Below, piece by piece: positions 11,600-37,971 of a DNA stretch of 37,971 bases. Position numbers and translations under genes: made by a program. Every line of letters begins with the position of its first letter. Position 1 is the first letter of the stretch. Under the pieces are notes generated by a model. The model worked only from the letters and a program-made list of their open reading frames with translations. It was not told the DNA's origin and searched no databases. The stretch is taken from positions 9,495,323 through 9,533,293 of the forward strand of contig NC_057752.1 in the NCBI RefSeq assembly GCF_004010195.1, given 5' to 3'. The DNA comes from Chiloscyllium plagiosum (taxonomy: Eukaryota).

Positions 11600-14030
11600 T
11601 TTTAAAGGTGAAAGTCAGAGAAGGAAAGTTCAAGGTTGTGGTCTATTCTTCCTGCTCAATGGGAAGTCAGGCACAGTTCCAGTGCCAGAATGTATCCTGG
11701 AACTGTTTTCAGCAGCAACTCCTGGAAGCCTGGGTTTCTGAGCTGGAGCGGCAGCTGGGGACTCTGTGTACGTGCTGTCTGCTACTTGCAGCTTTGTGGA
11801 TGCTCTGCAGAGGTGGTCACGCTGCATGGGCAGAAAGGGAATGGGTAATCACCCTGCACAGTAAAAGGACTAGGCAGGCTATGCAAGAGTCTCCTGTGAC
11901 TACTCCCCTTGTAAAACACACCTACCACATTGGATACTGTTGAGGGGAATGGCCTTTCAGGCGAGTCGCAACAGCCAAATTTGTTGCACCACAGTTGACT
12001 CTGCTGAATGGGAAAGCAGGAATGCAAGGAAAAGCTAAAGTAATAAGGGGTTCAATTGCAATAGGAATCGATAGATATTTCTGTGGCCTCAAACCAGATT
12101 TCAGGATGGTATGTTGCCTCCTAGGTGCTAGGGTCAAGTTTGTCTCGGGGGCTACAGGACCTTCTGGATGGGAGGGTGAACAGGCAGTGGTCATGTTACA
12201 CATTGATACCAGCAACGTAGGACCTCCATTCCTTTTTCTTTTAAATCTAAGAGCAGAATATAGGGACTTAGGAAGTGGGGTTTTAAAAAATAGGACCTCC
12301 AAAGGTAGTGATCTCACTGGTTGCTACCAGTGCCACATGCTAGTCAGAGTAGAAGTAGCTGGATATATCAGTTCAATCAGTGGCTGGAGAGATGGTGAAG
12401 GGGGAGGGTTTCAGTTTCCTCAGATCTTGGGACTGGATCTGGGGGGGATGGCCCAGTACAGATTGGATAGGATCCACCTGGACAGGACCAGGACTGATGT
12501 CCTAGGAAGGAAATGCCAGTGTTTGTTGGGGAGGGTTTAAACTGAAATGGCAGGGGGATTGGAAACTATACAAGGAGATAGAAGAGAAGGAAACAGGACA
12601 AAAACAAAAGACTGAATGGGAAATAAGAAAGTGATTAGGCTAAGAATTAAAAGGCAAGGATATCTGGGCCACATGTGGCAAAATGAGAATGGGACTAAAT
12701 GTTTGAAAAGACCAGACTTTAAGGCCTTGTGTCTTAATGTGCAGAACATTCAATAGACAATAGGTGCAGGAGTAGGCCATTCAGCCCTTCGAGCCTGCAC
12801 CGCCATCCAATATAATCATGGCTGATCATTCCTAATCAGTATCCTGTTCCTGCCTTATCTCCATAACCCTTGATTCCACTATCTTTGAGAGCTCTATCCA
12901 ACTCCTTCTTAAATGAATCCAGAGAGTGGGCCTCCACTGCCCTCTGGGGCAGAGCATTCCACACAGCCACCACTCACTGGGTGAAGAAGTTNNNNNNNNN
13001 NNNNNNNNCTCGTGAACCTACGCTGCACTCCTTCAATAGCCAGAATGTCTTTCCTCAAATTTGGAGACCAGAACTGCACGCAGTACTCCAGGTGTGGCCT
13101 TACCAGTGTTTTGTACAGCTGCAGAAGCACCTCTTTGCTTCTGTACTCAATTCCTCTTGTTATGAAGGTCAGCATGCTATTAGCCTTCTTCACTACCTGC
13201 TGTACCTGCATGCTTGCCTTCATTGACTGGTGTACAAGAACACCCAGATCTCTCTGTACTGCCCCTTTACATAAATTGATTCCATTGAGGTAGTAGTCTG
13301 CCTTCCTGTTCTTGCCACCAAAGTGGATAACCATACATTTATCCACATTAAACTGCATCTGCCCACTCACCTAACTTGTCCAGGTCACCCTGTAATCTCC
13401 TAACATCCTCATCACATTTCACCCTGCCACCCAGCTTTGTATCATCGGCAAATTTGCTAATGTTATTGCTGATACCATCTTCTATATCATTAACATATAT
13501 TGTAAAAAGCTGCGGTCCCAGCACGGATCCCTGCGGTACTTTATTCATAATAAAGTGGATGAATTGATCACTGACATAGATGTGAATGGGTTTAATATAG
13601 TTGGGATTATGGAAAAATGGCTGCAGGGTGACCAGGGATGGGAACTGAATATCCCAGGGGCATTCCATTTTTAGGTTGGACAGATGAAAAAGAAATGAAG
13701 GTGGGGTAGCATTGCTGGTTAAAAAGGAATTAACACCAACATGAGAGAATATTAGATCTGGTGAAGTGTAGTCTGAGCTTAAAAACACCAAGGGGCAGAA
13801 AATGATAGGGTGTTGGATGTAATGGTAATGTGGGGAAGGCATTAAACAAGACATTTTTAGAAATGCAAACAACAAAAATACAGCTGTAGTTATGGATGAT
13901 GTTAATCCCCATCGAGATTAGGCAAATCAAATCAGTAACAAAACCTTTTTAGAGGAGGAATTCCTGAAGTGTATGGGATGGTTTTCAGGATCACTAGGTT
14001 GCAGAACCAACTAGAGAACAGGCCATTCTG
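11600..14030 (+). mobile_element. Older CR1 LINE 5' portion (ORF1 esterase-like region plus APE endonuclease start), split by the younger CR1 at 12751-13536
   Basis: ORF1-like RMVCCLLGARVK and RLDRIHLDRTRTDVL. Endonuclease-like KALCLNVQNI|NKVDELITDIDVNGFNIVGIMEKWLQGDQGWELNIPG resumes after 13540. Many frameshifts. Confidence 0.75.
12751..13536 (-). mobile_element. Young 5'-truncated CR1 LINE
   Basis: [19 protein letters not shown]...SKFADDTKLGG, then MQFNVDKC...RDLGV...LYKTLVRPHLEYCVQFWSP. Ends in a (CTATTGT) repeat tail at 12751. Confidence 0.92.
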
Positions 14031-16725: not shown

Positions 16726-17356
16726 CTTAAAAAGTGCTTTCGCCTTCAATTGGACTGTATCCAGTTTTGAAAGAGTGATGGACTAGGTGGTCGTTCCCAT
16801 TCGTCTCTGGACTGGGACCCAGATCCATACTATACAGAGTTCTTTTGATACACAACCCCATAGATTCTGCATTCCACAAATACAAAATTACTAAAACCAA
16901 CTCTGCTATTTGTGTTTGAAGATGCTTTTATGTGGAGAGATTTTTGGGATTTGGATTCCAGGGAGCTCGTGTTGAGTTGGCTCCTAGTTTTTGTATGCCC
17001 AACTCCCCCATTCATTTGGCAGGATCTGGTTCTGCCACAAGGGGAAGGAAAGCTTAAAGGCAGGAGCCCAGCTTGAATACCTGTCTCTGGGAATTCAAAT
17101 TAAGCTGATGGTGTAGGCACTGTTGTACTGGTTCTACCTTGTTGCAGTAGGTTGTGGGAAAGCTCAGAATTGAGGGCCAAAAGTATGTTGTATTTGTTGG
17201 TGATTATCAGGAATTCAAGAGAAAGTTTCTTTCCTAGAAAGTGAGGAGAATGTGTAGCTTGCTACCATTTTAAGCCAAATGGCTTGATTTTGTGCTGTGA
17301 ATTTTTAGGAGTGTAGCCATTGTTGAGATCACATTCTGCTTTTATTGGTTGGAAAT

Positions 17357-17570
17357 GGTCAGATGTCACATGACACCAGGTTATAGTCCAACAGGTTTAT
17401 TTGAAATAACAAGCTTTTGGAGTGCTACTCCTTCGTCAGCTAACACTACTTCGCCTAATGAAGGAGCAGCACTCCAAAAGCTTGTGATTTCAAATAAACC
17501 TGTTGGACTATAACCTGGTGTCATGTGACATCTGACCTTGTCCAGCCCAGTCCAACACTGGCACCACCTC
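17357..17570. mobile_element. Palindromic Penelope-like insertion (~83-bp arms) with a TSD
   Basis: Arms 17357-17439 and 17455-17537 are near-perfect reverse complements. Flanks ATTGGTTGGAA at 17344 and 17571. Confidence 0.75.
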
Positions 17571-32520: not shown

Positions 32521-32804
32521 CATAAATATTCACTAGTACTTTATTCTCCTCCTACATTTACACTATAGTGCAAATACATTTTAGTCACTCTTTATGGCTG
32601 CGTTATCCTGCCCAGCAGTGTATACATGACTGCCAATGTAGTTCCCATGGGCAGCTGTTTCTAATGGGCTTCCTGCTGCGAGCACAGTGTGCCTTGCTGT
32701 CTGTGCCAATTGGGTTTGTGTAGAAAAACATTGAATGAATGAAAAACAAACCTAAAGACCCCACCTACACACCCCTCTACAGAGGCTGGTATCCCGTCAC
32801 CAAA

Positions 32805-33718
32805 TTTGATAAGGTGCCCCATGGTAGGCTCATTGAGAAGGTCAGGAGGAATGGGATACAGGGGAACTTAGCTGTCTGGATACAGAATTGGCTGGCCAAC
32901 AGAAGACAGCGAGTGATAGTAGAAGGAAAATATTCTGCCTGGAAGTCCGTGGTGAGTGGTGTTCCACAGGGCTCTGTCCTTGGTCCTCTACTGTTTGTAA
33001 TTTTTATTAATGACTTGGATGAGGGCATTGANNNNNNNNNNNNNNNNNNNNNNNNNNNNNNNNNNNNNNNNNNNNNNNNNNNNNNNNNNNNNNNNNNNNN
33101 NNNNNNNNNNNNNNNNNNNNNNNNNNNNNNNNNNNNNNNNNNNNNNNNNNNNNNNNNNNNNNNNNNNNNNNNNNNNNNNNNNNNNNNNNNNNNNNNNNNN
33201 NNNNNNNNNNNNNNNNNNNNNNNNNNNNNNNNNNNNNNNNNNNNNNNNNNNNNNNNNNNNNNNNNNNNNNNNNNNNNNNNNNNNNNNNNNNNNNNNNNNN
33301 NNNNNNNNNNNNNNNNNNNNNNNNNNNNNNNNNNNNNNNNNNNNNNNNNNNNNNNNNNNNNNNNNNNNNNNNNNNNNNNNNNNNNNNNNNNNNNNNNNNN
33401 NNNNNNGCATAGATAGAGTCGATAGCCAGAGACTATTTCCCAGGGCAGAAATGACTAACACGAGGGGTTATAGTTTTCAGCTGGTTGGAGGAAAGTATAG
33501 AGGGGATGTCAGAGGCGGGTTCTTTACACAGTTGAGAGAGCATGGAATGCGCTGCCAGCAGCAGTTGTGGAAGCAAGGGCATTGGGGACATTTAAGAGAC
33601 TGCTGGACATGCATATGGTCACAGAAATTTGAGGGTGCATACATGAGGATCAGTGGTTGGCACAACATCGTGGAGTGAAGGGCCTGTTCTGTGCTGTACT
33701 GTACTGTTCTATGTTCTA
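32805..33718 (+). mobile_element. 5'-truncated CR1 LINE (RT C-terminus and 3' end) with an assembly gap, inserted in the LTR
   Basis: FDKVPHGRL...[22 protein letters not shown], then IDRVDSQRLFP...RGGFFTQ. Ends in a (TTCTATG)-like tail. N run at 33032-33406. Confidence 0.9.
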
Positions 33719-34025
33719 AATCGCCCTTTATTTACATGTGGAGAGTCCTTGACACTGATCCAGCTCTGTGAACAGAACCGCTGACACTCCTGTTCTTTTT
33801 TGTTAACCCAAAAAAAAAACATTTTTAAAAGTCTACCTGAAACAAGGGGGAGAGAAAAAGAAAACTCTCCTCCTTAGTAGGAAACCCAACAGCAGTAATA
33901 ACATACTGACTATATGGTCCAGGCAGTTCAGAGGTCAGTCCCCTCTCTCAAAATGAAGAGTCTTTTACCATTGTTCCAGCTCCCTCAGAGGCACCTCTGA
34001 GTGAACAGAACCTCTGACACTCCTG

Positions 34026-34193
34026 TTTTTTTTCTATTTTTTTCAAAATCTTCCCCCATACCACTGCCTAAGTGCGGTAGTGCTTATTTTTCCCCAGCAC
34101 CCATGTCATGTGTGTGCAGGTGTCAGACACGGCGAAGAACAAGAAGTGTGCAAATCTTCCTTTCTTCCTAGTGGTGGAATATAAATAAAGATA
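34026..34193 (-). mobile_element. Diverged Tx1 3'UTR fragment with a 5' inversion
   Basis: 34026-34158 is antisense 3'UTR. 34159-34192 (cctttcttcctagtggtggaatataaataaagat) is the adjacent upstream UTR segment in the opposite orientation. Confidence 0.75.
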
Positions 34194-34231
34194 CTTTTTT
34201 TTACACCTGAGTGGCCAGTGATATATTCCTG

Positions 34232-35557
34232 TTTTTTTTTCCCCTTTATTAACCCCCACACTACTGCCTAAGTGCGGTAGTGCTTATTTTTCCCCAGCAC
34301 CCATGGTGTGTGTGCAGGTGTGATACACAGTGAGAGACACAAGGTGTATGAATCTTTATTCAAATTCCACCACCAGGAAGATAGGAAAACACCCGGGTGG
34401 CCAGTGACAAACACTCCCCTTCACATCAAAGGGCAGTGCTGTGTGATCAAACAGCGAAGGGGAGGGTAGGGACTAAATGTGGGCGGCACGGTGGCGCAGT
34501 GGTTAGCACTGCTGCCTCACAGCGCCTGAGACCCGGGTTCAATTCCCGCCTCAGGCGACTGACTGTGTGGAGTTTGCACGTTCTCCCCGTGTCTGCGTGG
34601 GTTTCCTCCGGGTGCTCCGGTTTCCTCCCACAGTCCAAAGATGTGCAGGTAAGGTGAATTGGCCATGCTAAATTGCCCGTAGTGTTAGGTAAGGGGTAAA
34701 TGTAGGGGTATGGGTGGGTTTCGCTTCGGCGGGTCGGTGTGGACTTGTTGGGCCGAAGGGCCTGTTTCCACACTGTAATGTAATCTTTGTAATCTAATCT
34801 AAATCAAAATAGAGTTGGAGGGAGAAATGATGCACTCCACTCCCTGTGGCGCCCACCTCTCCATGAACAACTCCAGGGTGTTGGTCGACACCGTGTGCTC
34901 CTTCTCCAAGGACACCCGGGCCCTAACGTAACCGCAGAAGAGGGGCAGGCAGTCGGCCCTAATGGCCCCCTCCACGGCCCGCTGCCTCGACCTGTTGATG
35001 GCCAGTTTGGCCAGGCCCAGGAGCAGACCCACGAGGAGGTCTTCAGACCTGCCCTCCCTCCTCCGTACCGGGTGCCCAAAGATCAGGAGCGTGGGACTGA
35101 AGTGCAACCAAAAGCAGAGGAGGAGGTTTTTCAAAATCAAAAAGGGAGTGCAAACGCCGACACCCAATATACATGTGGTCCACGGACTCCACAGCGCCAC
35201 AGAACAAGCAGTTGGGCTGGGAGTCCGTGAACCACCGCAATCTGCGGTTGCAGGGGACTGCTGCGTGCAGCACCCTCCACCCCAGATCCCCGAGAGAAAG
35301 GGGGAGGACTCCCGCGTAGAGAGCCCTCCACTGGGGATCCCCACCGCCCGGTGGCAAATGGGCATGCCAAGGCGTGTCCGGACGGTGGATGAGGGAGAAG
35401 AGGTGGACGGTGTGCAGCAGCAGTCTATACAGGGCCCTCCTTTTTACCCCCTGGAAGGGAACAAAATTAAAATTCCGGAGGCGGCTCAGGTTGTGGGGCA
35501 CAGGCTCCCGCGGGAAGTACGGGACCTTGGGGCCAATGTGAAATTCCGTCCAGGCTG
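34232..35557 (-). mobile_element. 5'-truncated Tx1-clade (L1 superfamily) non-LTR retrotransposon: ORF2 C-terminus with zf-RVT, 3'UTR and poly(A), interrupted by a SINE
   Basis: Translation ...DLGWRVLHAAVPCNRRLRWFTDSQPNCLFCGAVESVDHMYIGCRRL..., a frameshift near 35135, then ...LLLGLAKLAINRSRQRAVEG...ERWAPQGVECIISPSNSILI* (stop 34799-34801). The CxxC-H-C knuckle and C-terminus are typical of Tx1 ORF2. Confidence 0.85.
34481..34800 (+). mobile_element. Young full-length tRNA-derived SINE (HE1/V-SINE-like) nested in the Tx1 copy
   Basis: A box GGTGGCGCAGTGG (~34490), B box GGTTCAATTCC (~34536), V-SINE core (gtgtggagtttgcacgttctccccgtgtctgcgtgggtttcctccggg), CpG-rich, (TAATC)n tail. CTAAAT is duplicated on both sides. 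Confidence 0.9.
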
Positions 35558-35571
35558 TAAACTGTTGTACG

Positions 35572-36473
35572 TTTTTTTTTTGACAAGAAGCACAGTCATT
35601 TATTTCTCTGAACAGTTTACACAGTGAGTCAACAGGGAGTGCAAATGACATTCAGTAATTCCAGGCTTAGGGTCTGCGCTGAGTCCTTGCTGAATCTTGG
35701 GATGCATGGAATGAATCCGGTTCCTCTGGAGAAAGGGGAAATTGTTCCAAAGATCTTTGTTCCTTTCCTGCACCTAGGCAGCAAGGAATTATCTGGGCTG
35801 ATTTGGTGACAGTGCATGTGGTGAAGAGCAGAAGCTCCAGCTTCAGGAGATGTTGTTTGTGGGACCTTAATGATGCCGAGGTCTCTAACAGATCAACAAC
35901 ACTGGTGAGAACAAATCTATCCGCTGGCTTCGATCTCCTCTGAATCATATTTGAAGTCCTGAAGAACCTCATTAATTGCCTCAATGGTTTTCCTAATCTG
36001 CTTCAGTTCTCGGGCCTCCTCCTGGTAGGTCTCATTGCCTGGATGGTCCAACATATTCTGCTTGGCAAGTTGTCGCCTGGTTGTCAATTCTAGCTTTTCC
36101 TGTTCCCGTTCCTGAACTCTCGTGATGTGCTCAGAGAGATCTGGGTGATCATACTCCTCATGAAACCGGTCCTTGAGCTGAATCACTTCCTTGGAGATCC
36201 GGTTAAATGCCTGGGTGATTTCGTGCACCAGCTGCCGGTATTTGATAAAGTTATAGTTGGGAGCAGAGCGGAGATACGCCTGATGTCCTAGATCAAAAAG
36301 CCGATAAGCTTCAACACGCTCCTCCTGTAATGCATAAAGGGTCCGCACCAGTGTATTCAGTCCATTTGCAATCATCCTCCATCCAGAGCGCGACTGGCTC
36401 AGGGACTTGCTCCTGTCAGCCGCCTGGTCCTCCTGCGACAGCAACAACTCAGGCCAGGCTGCGTTACTGCAGG
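35572..36473 (-). pseudogene. REX1BD: Processed retrocopy of REX1BD (C19orf60) mRNA: 5'UTR, uninterrupted ORF, 3'UTR, AATAAA and poly(A), flanked by a TSD
   Basis: Intronless ORF with ATG at 36375 and stop ending at 35917. AATAAA on the minus strand at 35599-35604, A10 tail at 35572-35581. Flanked by TAAACTGTTGTAC (35558-35570) and CAAACTGTTGTTC (36474-36486). Confidence 0.85.
35917..36375 (-). CDS. REX1BD: Open 152-aa ORF of the REX1BD retrocopy (required-for-excision 1-B domain protein); expression unknown
   Basis: Motifs LQEERVEAY, GHQAYLRSAPNYNFIKYRQLVHEITQAF, VQEREQEKL and KTIEAINEVLQDFKYD match the REX1B/C19orf60 family as recalled (human GHRQYLRSGPDYDFARYR...KTMEAISEVLQDLRFD). No internal stop. 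Confidence 0.75.
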   Translation of the reverse strand: MIANGLNTLVRTLYALQEERVEAYRLFDLGHQAYLRSAPNYNFIKYRQLVHEITQAFNRISKEVIQLKDRFHEEYDHPDLSEHITRVQEREQEKLELTTRRQLAKQNMLDHPGNETYQEEARELKQIRKTIEAINEVLQDFKYDSEEIEASG

Positions 36474-36486
36474 CAAACTGTTGTTC

Positions 36487-36669
36487 TTTATTTTTTTTTC
36501 AGTGAAAGACACAGTGCACGAATCTTTATTCAAATTCCACCACCGGGAAGATAGGAAAACACCCGGGTGGCCAGTGACAAACACTGCCCTTCACATCAGA
36601 GGGCAGTGCTGTGTGATCAAAACAGTGAGGGGGAGGGTAGGGACTAAATCAAAATAGAGTTGGAGGGAG
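36487..36669 (-). mobile_element. Tx1 3' fragment polyadenylated at the proximal AATAAA
   Basis: Same 3'UTR (gggtggccagtgacaaacactgcccttcacatc...gggactaaatcaaaatagagttggaggga). Flanked by exact CAAACTGTTGTTC at 36474 and 36670. Confidence 0.85.
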
Positions 36670-36746
36670 CAAACTGTTGTTCGTTTTTTTTTTTTTTTTA
36701 CACTCACAATAGGCAAACACTCAAGTGGCCAGTGACCAAACTGTTC

Positions 36747-37042
36747 TTTTTTTAATAATTCAACCCCCACACTACCACCTAAGTGCGGTAGTGCTTATTT
36801 TATCCCCAGCACCCATGGTGTGTGTGTGCAGGTGTGAGACACAGTGGAAGACACAAAGTGCACCAATCTTTATTCAATTTCCACCACCAGGAAGATAGGA
36901 AAACACCCGGGTGGCCAGTGACAAGCACTGCCCTTCACATCAAAGGGCAGTGCTGTGTGATCAAAACAGTGAAGGGGAGGGTAGGGACTAAATCAAAATA
37001 GAGTTGGAGGGAGAAATAATGCACTCCACTCCCTGCTGCGCC
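36747..37042 (-). mobile_element. Tx1 3' fragment (last ~17 ORF2 codons plus full 3'UTR and poly(A))
   Basis: Near-identical to 34232-34478 plus 34801-34853. Bounded by caaactgttc (36737-36746) and caaactgttgttc (37043-37055). Confidence 0.85.
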
Positions 37043-37158
37043 CAAACTGTTGTTCTTGTCTGTCAGCTAGGGCTCCCTGATTGGACCAGATTAATAGCTG
37101 TAATTAGGGAACTCCTATTCTGAGGTCCATCTGGCTGTTCTCATTACAATCACCCACA

Positions 37159-37971
37159 TCCTTCCCCCTCTGAGTCAGAGGACATAGGCCTGTTCTTTTT
37201 TATTTCTCCTTGTGGTTCCTCCTGCACCGGTTCGAGTTTCTCCAACTCTGCCTGTGGTGCACAGTCGCTCACCTCTTGCATCCAGAGCATTGTTATACCT
37301 CTAGTAGAGTTGCTAATCAAATAGGAACTGGGATAGTTTGGTATCTAGTAAAGCTGTAGGCTGTTTCTTTTAGCCAGCCTTCAAAGTTTGGACTGCACTT
37401 TCTTTCAGACAAACGGTTGATGGATGGCATGGAGCTGTCCTTGTACGCTGAATACCATTCGACTTTAGGGAATTCTCTAATTCTAAATGATGGCCTGTTA
37501 TCTGTGACCAGCACTTCTGGGAATCTGTATATTGCAAACGATGCACACAGTTTTTCTATCATCTTTCCCGTGTTTGACAAATGAACTCTGCGCGTTCAGT
37601 GACATTGAGTGGGCGACTACAGTGACTGAACATAAAGTCCATGATGTGGGGGAGCTGCTACCAGTTATTTTTGTGTTTGTTGGCACCCTGGGCACTATCC
37701 CCATCAATGCGGCTATGGCTTCATTCAGTCCTGGTTACCAGACATAACGTCTTGTCAACGTCTTCATTTTGGATACCCCTGGATGACCCCGGTGGTGTTC
37801 AGCCAGTATCTGGCAGCGACCTTTGCTCAGGACAATCACTCTTGCTCCCATAATCATGTGTCATCCTGTACTGTGATCTGGTCTGTGTCCAAAAAAGTTT
37901 CAATTCTTTGGGTGAAGATTTGTAGCTCGGGTGCTCGTTGTTGTGGTTCTGTTCACCGAGCTGGAAATTTT
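37159..37971 (-). mobile_element. Degenerate Gypsy/Ty3 pol, integrase region, plus PPT
   Basis: Minus-strand reading gives LAEHHRGHPGVSKMKTLTRRYVW*PGL...CPGCQ (integrase H2C2 zinc domain) and IEKLCASFAIYRFPEVLVTDNRPSF (rve core), with stops and frameshifts. Runs off the window end. Confidence 0.85.

Follow-up and report, generated by a model that had tools for sequence, protein, structure and literature searches.

We analysed a stretch of 37,971 nucleotides of the genome of Chiloscyllium plagiosum (NCBI RefSeq assembly GCF_004010195.1, contig NC_057752.1, positions 9,495,323 to 9,533,293), which is referred to below as the window. Positions 33796-37055 of the window hold a stack of eight T-tailed units, all antisense on the plus strand, which splits one long terminal repeat (LTR) of about 270 bp at its TATA position (Table 1). 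Units 2, 3, 4, 6 and 8 are 3' pieces of one family of long interspersed nuclear elements (LINEs), and unit 5 is a copy of a spliced host mRNA. An original prediction, made from the letters of the window, had described about eight units in one orientation, each opening with a T-tract, and had read them as a candidate array of RNA-derived inserts that records RNA at a site-specific target. T-tracts were located at all eight unit starts (the first positions given in Table 1), and judged on its sequence the stack in the window is real. The behaviour that builds such stacks is real and genome-wide, and it is a variant of the known reuse of targets by LINEs.

Table 1. Features of the stack and of its target LTR in the window (L numbers denote loci elsewhere in the genome)
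Feature	Position	Strand	Remarks
Downstream (R/U5-side) half of target LTR	33718-33795	minus	aligns to empty LTR copy L044; AATAAA-like signal
Unit 1	33796-34025	minus	T-tail, 167 nt of a multicopy family and 57 nt of LTR from another copy
Unit 2	34026-34194	minus	3' tail of an older LINE subfamily; 82% to reference copy L078
Unit 3	34195-34231	minus	fragment of about 19 nt of LINE 3' untranslated region (UTR); junction TATATTCCTG; repeat family D5
Unit 4	34232-35571	minus	longest LINE piece, 3' UTR and C-terminus of open reading frame 2; reference 3-986; junction 35558-35571
Short interspersed element (SINE), tRNA-headed	34480-34798	plus	later insertion in unit 4, opposite sense
Unit 5	35572-36490	minus	retrocopy of a REX1-B domain gene, spliced and with poly(A) tail; junction 36474-36490
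Unit 6	36491-36683	minus	LINE 3' UTR piece, internal poly(A) site; reference 81-249; junction 36670-36683
Unit 7	36684-36746	minus	piece of about 37 nt of a composite LINE/LTR-flank RNA; junction 36737-36746
Unit 8	36747-37055	minus	LINE 3' UTR piece; reference 3-280; junction 37043-37055
Upstream (U3-side) half of target LTR	37056-37158	minus	aligns to empty copy L069
Polypurine tract and disrupted integrase region of LTR retrotransposon	37159-37971	minus	purine run 37159-37170

Layout and contents of the stack

A 13-nt junction of the CAAACTGTTGTTC type is common to five units and was found at every predicted position (35558, 36474, 36670, 36737 and 37043), with three copies exact and two carrying two mismatches. 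Positions 1-33000 of the window (32,967 bases) gave no match with up to two mismatches, and 500 shuffles of the stack gave a mean of 0.036 and a maximum of 1 against the five observed. The second motif, predicted for three sites, is present exactly as GACACTCCTGTT at 33783 and 34016 in the left group of units, but the third copy, near 34222-34224, is weak and consists of TATTCCTGTT only; no recognisable junction motif was seen at the boundary at 34195. Only the last five bases of the CAAACTGTTGTTC-type junction are derived from the LTR, in contrast to the eight in front of them, and each stack has its own junction sequence. The direct repeats proposed to lie between inserts are only a target duplication of 11-15 nt, which differs between loci and drifts within each of them. 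The LINE units cover different ranges of the reference (14-109+, 3-986, 81-249 and 3-280), with different poly(A) sites and 5' ends, and Tandem Repeats Finder reported no array in the stack, in line with the claim that this is no tandem DNA duplication.

The further claim that all units are independent events probably fails for units 1 and 2. The LTR piece of unit 1, which is without the 19 bases missing from the left LTR half and shows two base differences, was not copied from the LTR of the window, and a tail of the unit 2 type also follows relatives of unit 1 in three of the five sampled; a single read-through transcript therefore probably delivered unit 1 together with unit 2, unit 1 being the carried-along downstream flank, and the eight units would represent at most seven events. 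Unit 1 was not traced to one source locus, as the search returned a multicopy family (at least 265 first-look candidates, 78-86% identical), and the variant tail of unit 2 is also present in L079. Unit 4 gave a zf-RVT match (PF13966, E=9e-6) of 26.6 bits, just under the cut-off of 27.5. The SINE within unit 4, presumably of an HE1-like family, has collinear LINE sequence on both sides and more copies in the window (D3, D4, D13 and D14).

The capture of non-self RNA, also predicted, is confirmed by unit 5, whose frame matches PF14966 (E=1.6e-29). The parent gene, which we take to be REX1BD, has five exons spread over 13 kb (C31:42544693-42557735) that are 96-99% identical to unit 5 and are joined in it, and unit 5 was the only intron-less match among six candidates. 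As expected of a processed pseudogene, the introns are missing, a T-tract occupies 35572-35581 and the junction motif lies on both sides. The tag in unit 7 also occurs in L013 and L030 and runs on there into LTR-like sequence, so its source was a composite read-through RNA. Unit 8 has copies of 95-98% identity elsewhere in the genome and is probably the newest unit.

The two LTR halves that flank the stack have in common a private C after TGTT. The left half ends in ...GACACTCCTGTTC, is 19 bases shorter than intact copies and is itself cut by a LINE tail on its left. The right half, with an alignment score of 148 against a shuffled maximum of 27, starts with TGT on the minus strand and contains CCAAT at 37080-37084 and a TATA-like element that is mutated in the window copy. 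The minus-strand sequence of the empty site is ...GCTGACAGATATAAACAGGAGTGTC...; CCAAT lies upstream of it and an AATAAA-like signal follows downstream, and the shape and position of these motifs suggest CCAAT/TATA promoter roles. The purine tract and a weak integrase zinc-binding match on the right (Integrase_H2C2, PF17921, E=1e-4, below cut-off, in one of four stop-free pieces scanned) mark the LTR as the 3' LTR of a minus-strand retrotransposon. Among the hallmarks of Gypsy-type elements, LTR ends and purine tract were seen and the integrase match was sub-threshold; integrase-region matches also lie beside six of 30 empty LTRs. Broken LINE pieces with reverse transcriptase (RT) motifs at 12909-13917 and 32790-33717 are presumably CR1-like, to judge from those motifs; the latter end at the left edge of the target LTR and span a 375-base gap (33032-33406).

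The LINE and its preferred site

Domain matches and structural comparison identify the driver of the stack as a LINE of the L1/Tx1 group with an apurinic/apyrimidinic (APE) endonuclease. In its long copy L073 the endonuclease domain (PF03372) matched above cut-off (E=9e-8), and the start of RVT_1 (E=9e-5) and zf-RVT (E=2e-4) matched below it. Among solved structures, the L1 endonuclease and its loop chimeras were the best matches; the L1/Tx1L loop chimera 2v0r scored 49 bits and the L1 endonuclease 46, a margin too small for a clade call. Homolog and Atlas searches with the LINE protein returned no named Tx1 protein among the matches and no clade name, and the closest named relatives of the endonuclease are in cartilaginous fishes and sturgeon. 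The family shows the poly(A) tail, 5' truncation and target-site duplication (TSD) of the 10-20 nt class that are hallmarks of LINEs, and a 30-mer at its main poly(A) site has at least 6014 genome matches.

All genome counts were obtained by pattern and similarity searches of the 3.56-Gb genome and are lower bounds. Counted with 31-mers and up to two mismatches, the LTR target site is T-tailed in at least 673 copies, which include some LTR pieces inside stacks, and empty in at least 2039. A control site in the same LTR, the T-rich poly(A) signal, is T-tailed in at least 52 copies, most of them near-empty matches, and empty in at least 2579. Insertions occur where ...CTCCTGTT meets TATATCTGTCAGC, in the same sense as the LTR and with a duplication of about 11-15 nt. 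The junction motif is present in the empty LTR copies and varies from stack to stack, which argues that it belongs to the target, as predicted, and not to the LINE consensus. The flanks beyond the LINE poly(A) were tabulated for loci chosen by the LINE tail alone. Of its 47 matches the 30 best were taken, which left 29 loci without the window itself, and three of these were dropped because the right flank was not visible. Sixteen of the remaining 26, L014 included, end in the U3 half of the LTR family, and ten do not; L006 (35 against 27 shuffled) and L026 (34 against 33 shuffled) were counted as non-LTR. The predicted enrichment for the LTR is thus present, and the predicted site-specific insertion is reduced to a strong preference that falls short of strict specificity. 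Five units of the window share a junction at a site with a mutated TATA-like element and a drifted left part, so that neither the left part nor an intact TATA seems to be needed.

The contents of filled sites were surveyed in the first 30 of 100 listed sites, chosen without regard to content. The LINE tail is present in 25 of these and non-self inserts in about 12. Spliced host mRNA was found at two sites: L074 holds a retrocopy of a Vps5-domain gene, presumably SNX2, with three exons joined, and L091 holds a ferritin retrocopy with exon junctions at about 60 and 190, which with unit 5 makes three inserts with introns removed. Other sites contain a SINE (L098), a second tail family (L099, L106), a short antisense insert that we take to resemble antisense CR1 (L104), one insert without assigned identity (L081) and LTR-derived RNAs (L075, L078, L083, L093, L099, L109). 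The LTR-derived RNAs show that some LTR copies are transcribed. Ten of the 30 sites have no visible right LTR half; at the 20 closed sites the duplication up to TGTT measures 11-13 nt (plus 1-3 ambiguous bases) in 16, 42 nt in one with LTR RNA and 5-8 nt in three. Locus-private bases were copied in the duplication at L105 and L109.

A number of separate observations concern these and other stacks. The ferritin insert of L091 lies directly beside the TATA-side junction, and about ten copies of its parent type, all with introns, are clustered at C39:4.62-4.72 Mb, with many intron-less copies elsewhere. The second T-tailed family, which starts ...ATTAAACAAATTACAAAAACAG on the T-strand, occupies the same site in L003, L008, L014, L030, L079, L099 and L106 and may be the tail of another LINE. 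L089 (C97405:11700-20500) holds 12 LINE pieces and many micro-units in 8.8 kb, including a 2.9-kb gap, with the 5' end 313 and one junction common to four units. Micro-units of 5-20 nt lie between T-tail and full junction in many stacks (L089, L090, L095, L103) and are probably the result of very early aborted reverse transcription. The composite of LINE tail, LTR fragment and GC-rich downstream stretch recurs in L013, L014, L029, L030, L040 and at 36700-36736 of the window, which points to a single prolific locus as the source of this read-through RNA. Within the stack of L040 a LINE segment (2111-2230) is inverted, presumably in the manner of twin priming in L1. L081 contains a DNA-transposon-like element with terminal inverted repeats (60-690) just inside the T-tail of its first insert, and L075 contains a GC-rich coding-like sequence with a Cys/His-rich motif (1080-1391) about 1 kb from a filled site without a right LTR half.

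Order of growth and probable inheritance of 5' ends

The age of a unit was measured as its distance to the nearest unit in another locus, in a sample that leans towards young subfamilies and whose units are not independent. By this measure 19 of 24 stacks show a higher divergence in their left-most unit than in their right-most one (p=0.007), and non-selected units have a median of 3.9% to the left of the selected unit (n=34) and 1.5% to its right (n=15). Units 4, 6 and 8 of the window stand at 4.3, 3.0 and 0.8%, the value for unit 8 being biased low as the query. These results support growth of the stacks towards the U3/promoter side at the rebuilt site, as a tendency and not a rule. As in tandem arrays of the R1 type, the TSD lies between copies and entry tends to be at the 5'-side TSD, with the polarity seen in those 19 stacks.

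The 5' ends were compared in 143 units from 49 loci, of which 15 had no usable 5' end and 128 were used, with homopolymer and GT-repeat columns skipped. A 5' end is shared to within 3 nt by 50 of 225 pairs within loci, as against 181 of 7903 between loci, and 5000 permutations gave a mean of 6.2 and a maximum of 17. Such sharing was seen in 18 of 30 multi-unit loci, with different poly(A) sites in 36 of the 50 pairs, and was repeated in new loci (14/73 against 15/707; four of seven loci). In the 30 nt next to the shared end, rare alleles are common to both units in 24 of 52 cases; in the bins farther out this applies to 4-13% per bin. The last units of L100 and L027 pass directly from an internal position to the final 64 and 17 bases of the resident, respectively, plus the junction. 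The tip of the resident is probably re-copied when new cDNA pairs with the resident unit. Copying of a stack's own transcript in cis was considered as a source of such pairs and rejected for most of them, as rare alleles are seldom shared beyond 30 nt.

Elsewhere in the window, nested long inverted repeats (84 nt at 93%, 60 nt at 98% and 64 nt at 86%) surround SINE-like pieces at 1589-2460, and a near-perfect 93-nt inverted repeat with a 15-nt loop at 17347-17547 resembles a miniature inverted-repeat transposable element.

Proposed mechanism, alternatives and precedents

Target-primed reverse transcription (TPRT) is an established mechanism, and we consider it likely, with good confidence, that a LINE with a preferred LTR site, which rebuilds this site and stacks units at it, explains the stack. 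The L1/Tx1-group LINE would use its APE endonuclease at one favoured site in a common short LTR, where a nicked strand would offer a free end that primes on a poly(A) tail, and the duplication would rebuild the site on the promoter side. Later insertions would mostly use this rebuilt site, so that stacks would grow towards U3 and the newest unit would lie under the CCAAT/TATA elements. The enzyme also takes other poly(A) RNAs, as the spliced host mRNAs, the SINE and the LTR-derived RNAs at filled sites demonstrate, and read-through transcripts may bring neighbouring units and flanks from other stacks, which would account for foreign junctions and for units 1 and 2 in the window. Where new cDNA can pair with the resident unit, the 5' tip of the resident would be copied with the target, so that successive units would inherit one 5' end. 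Only the bases beside the nick and the U3-side flank are kept while the rest of the junction drifts, in the window to CAAACTGTTGTTC. Repeated target-primed insertion into a regenerated target, the core of the original prediction, is thereby supported, with the stack as a by-product of transposition without shown function.

Several results weigh against this account. An assembly gap covers most of the RT in L073. The ten of 26 LINE-picked loci outside the LTR end at T-rich sites, five of 24 stacks run opposite to the polarity, and the first eight junction bases at the window locus do not descend from the LTR; a similar string was found twice in L095. A few pairs look like plain DNA duplicates (units 4 and 5 of L014, with 0 differences, and a repeated block in L095). 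With regard to inheritance, divergence is lower near shared 5' ends in only 12 against 4 of 17 loci (p=0.077), this contrast is absent in a second set (22/394 against 92/1805, 5.6% against 5.1%), the end is shared in only 16 of 71 adjacent pairs, 26 new units extend past it, and no 5' end is shared among the units of the window itself.

The same TPRT could operate with a loose T-rich nick motif at sites chosen mainly by tethering to protein or open chromatin at the CCAAT/TATA promoter. The left eight bases of the site drift freely while the U3-side flank, which has ATTGG at a distance of about 30-40 nt, is conserved, and the off-LTR sites L016 and L021 likewise have TTTAT and then ATTGG at that distance; however, eight of the ten off-LTR sites lack ATTGG there, the TATA-like element is mutated in the window although the junction is common to five units, and, in the part of the source available, the endonucleases of Tx1L and R1Bm cut naked DNA with sequence specificity (PMC1950540), so that we hold tethering to be improbable. 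Duplication at the DNA level by unequal crossing-over, or mis-assembly of repeats beside the gap at 33032-33406, is very unlikely to account for the stack. Poly(A) sites and tails differ among units, the spliced retrocopy, which is single-copy, is bounded on both sides by the locus junction, the private C after TGTT stands in both LTR halves, and for 15 of 17 unit bodies the closest relative was found in another locus (a best-of-many comparison, which favours elsewhere). In favour of this alternative are the assembly gaps in or near several stacks and the cases in which duplication is suggested by rare alleles shared at 3' ends (L010 units 6-7), by identical units (L014 units 4-5) or by a repeated block (L095).

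Least credible of all, in our judgement, is that the stacks are a time-ordered germline RNA record used by the host and transcribed from the LTR promoter, for example for silencing small RNAs. Growth is polarised beside promoter-like motifs, non-self inserts are frequent in the content-blind survey and some LTR copies are transcribed, but the tail of the element itself is present in 25 of 30 sites, the captured mRNAs are housekeeping mRNAs whose silencing would be costly, the inserts are sense to the promoter, and the analysis saw no linked processing gene. The repeat differs from one locus to another and so offers no processing signal, and insert length ranges from about 10 nt to over 1 kb; a CRISPR-like array, with conserved repeat and near-constant spacer length, is not what was found. 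The predicted RNA recording is a side effect with no sign of use, and the analogy covers shape only. It is likewise very improbable that hundreds of LTR promoters hold self-renewing, time-ordered logs of germline poly(A) RNA, with each new insert arriving in sense just below the CCAAT/TATA elements, and that the inserts are transcribed from these elements, re-mobilisable and used by the host; if this were true, the host would use stack transcripts as piRNA-like precursors or promoter-equipped retrogenes, and a vertebrate RNA-acquiring memory locus would have been built from a LINE and an LTR.

The LINE reusing its preferred LTR site resembles several known systems. L1 makes processed pseudogenes and 3' transductions, and chimeric L1s arise when new cDNA pairs with a copy already in place. 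Like L1, this LINE captures mRNA in trans by way of the poly(A) tail, carries read-through flanks along and probably joins ends by homology, but the targets of L1 are scattered, whereas here one site is reused and insertion events therefore pile up in order. In CRISPR arrays, RT-Cas1 acquires spacers from RNA; polarised growth, RNA-derived inserts and duplicated sequence between them are shared by analogy only, since the stacks have no integrase-type acquisition and no fixed repeat or spacer length, and no processing or interference has been shown.

The comparisons that follow hold for those parts of the cited sources that were available. R1 of Drosophila forms arrays in 28S rDNA with a 14-bp TSD between copies (Stage and Eickbush 2009, PMC2718515); further copies enter the TSD at the 5' end of the resident, head-to-tail, and annealing of cDNA and target shapes the 5' junctions (PMC2718515). 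The stacks share with these arrays an APE LINE, a TSD of about 14 bp and insertion at the 5'-side TSD of the resident. They differ in that their target, present in thousands of copies, is a dispersed LTR and not rDNA, that the units are mostly short tails mixed with host mRNAs, SINE and LTR RNAs, and that the junction drifts per locus and 5' ends are probably inherited within stacks. Among the crocodilian elements Tx1-Mar, Tx1-8_Crp, Tx1-4_AMi and SINEU-3, the Tx1 families prefer sites in other transposons, and two of these families prefer LTR retrotransposons (Kojima 2015, PMC4494074). Tandem SINEU-3 copies sandwich a TSD and were read as sequential insertions; trans-mobilisation is a further shared feature, and transcription from flanking target sequence was proposed (PMC4494074). 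As available, this account gives no position in the LTR element, no long mixed stacks, no spliced host mRNAs at the target and no polarity test, although its supplementary figures S3-S4 may hold the LTR target sites. Tx1L of Xenopus laevis inserts in the DNA transposon Tx1D with a stringent, sequence-specific APE endonuclease (PMC1950540); an APE endonuclease aimed at another transposon is common to both, and the present family differs in its target and in its many off-target copies. Retrocopies in non-mammals have been linked to CR1/Tx1 content (bioRxiv 10.64898/2026.06.26.734816). Within the literature searched, outside subscription journals, Repbase Reports and supplements, we found no account of this LINE family, no Tx1 stacks at an LTR TATA position in cartilaginous fish and no inherited 5' ends in such LINE stacks. 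Beyond these precedents, the stacks show capture of host mRNA at a site on the promoter side, a polarity of growth and probable 5'-end inheritance.

For 5' junctions, template jumping or strand invasion has been proposed for R2 and the matter left open for APE LINEs, and both the 5' joining of LINE cDNA and the start of the second strand are still open, according to the part of the source available (PMC6895275). The stacks provide natural trials of this joining by the hundred, each with a known sequence past the duplication that shares homology with the cDNA coming in, and the apparently inherited 5' ends point to pairing that reaches well beyond the usual stagger of 14 nt. As long as no host use is in evidence, the stacks count as transposon biology. 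Their order can be used to date LINE subfamilies, and a vertebrate LINE that appears to deliver any poly(A) RNA to one defined site below a putative RNA polymerase II promoter bears on the birth of retrogenes.

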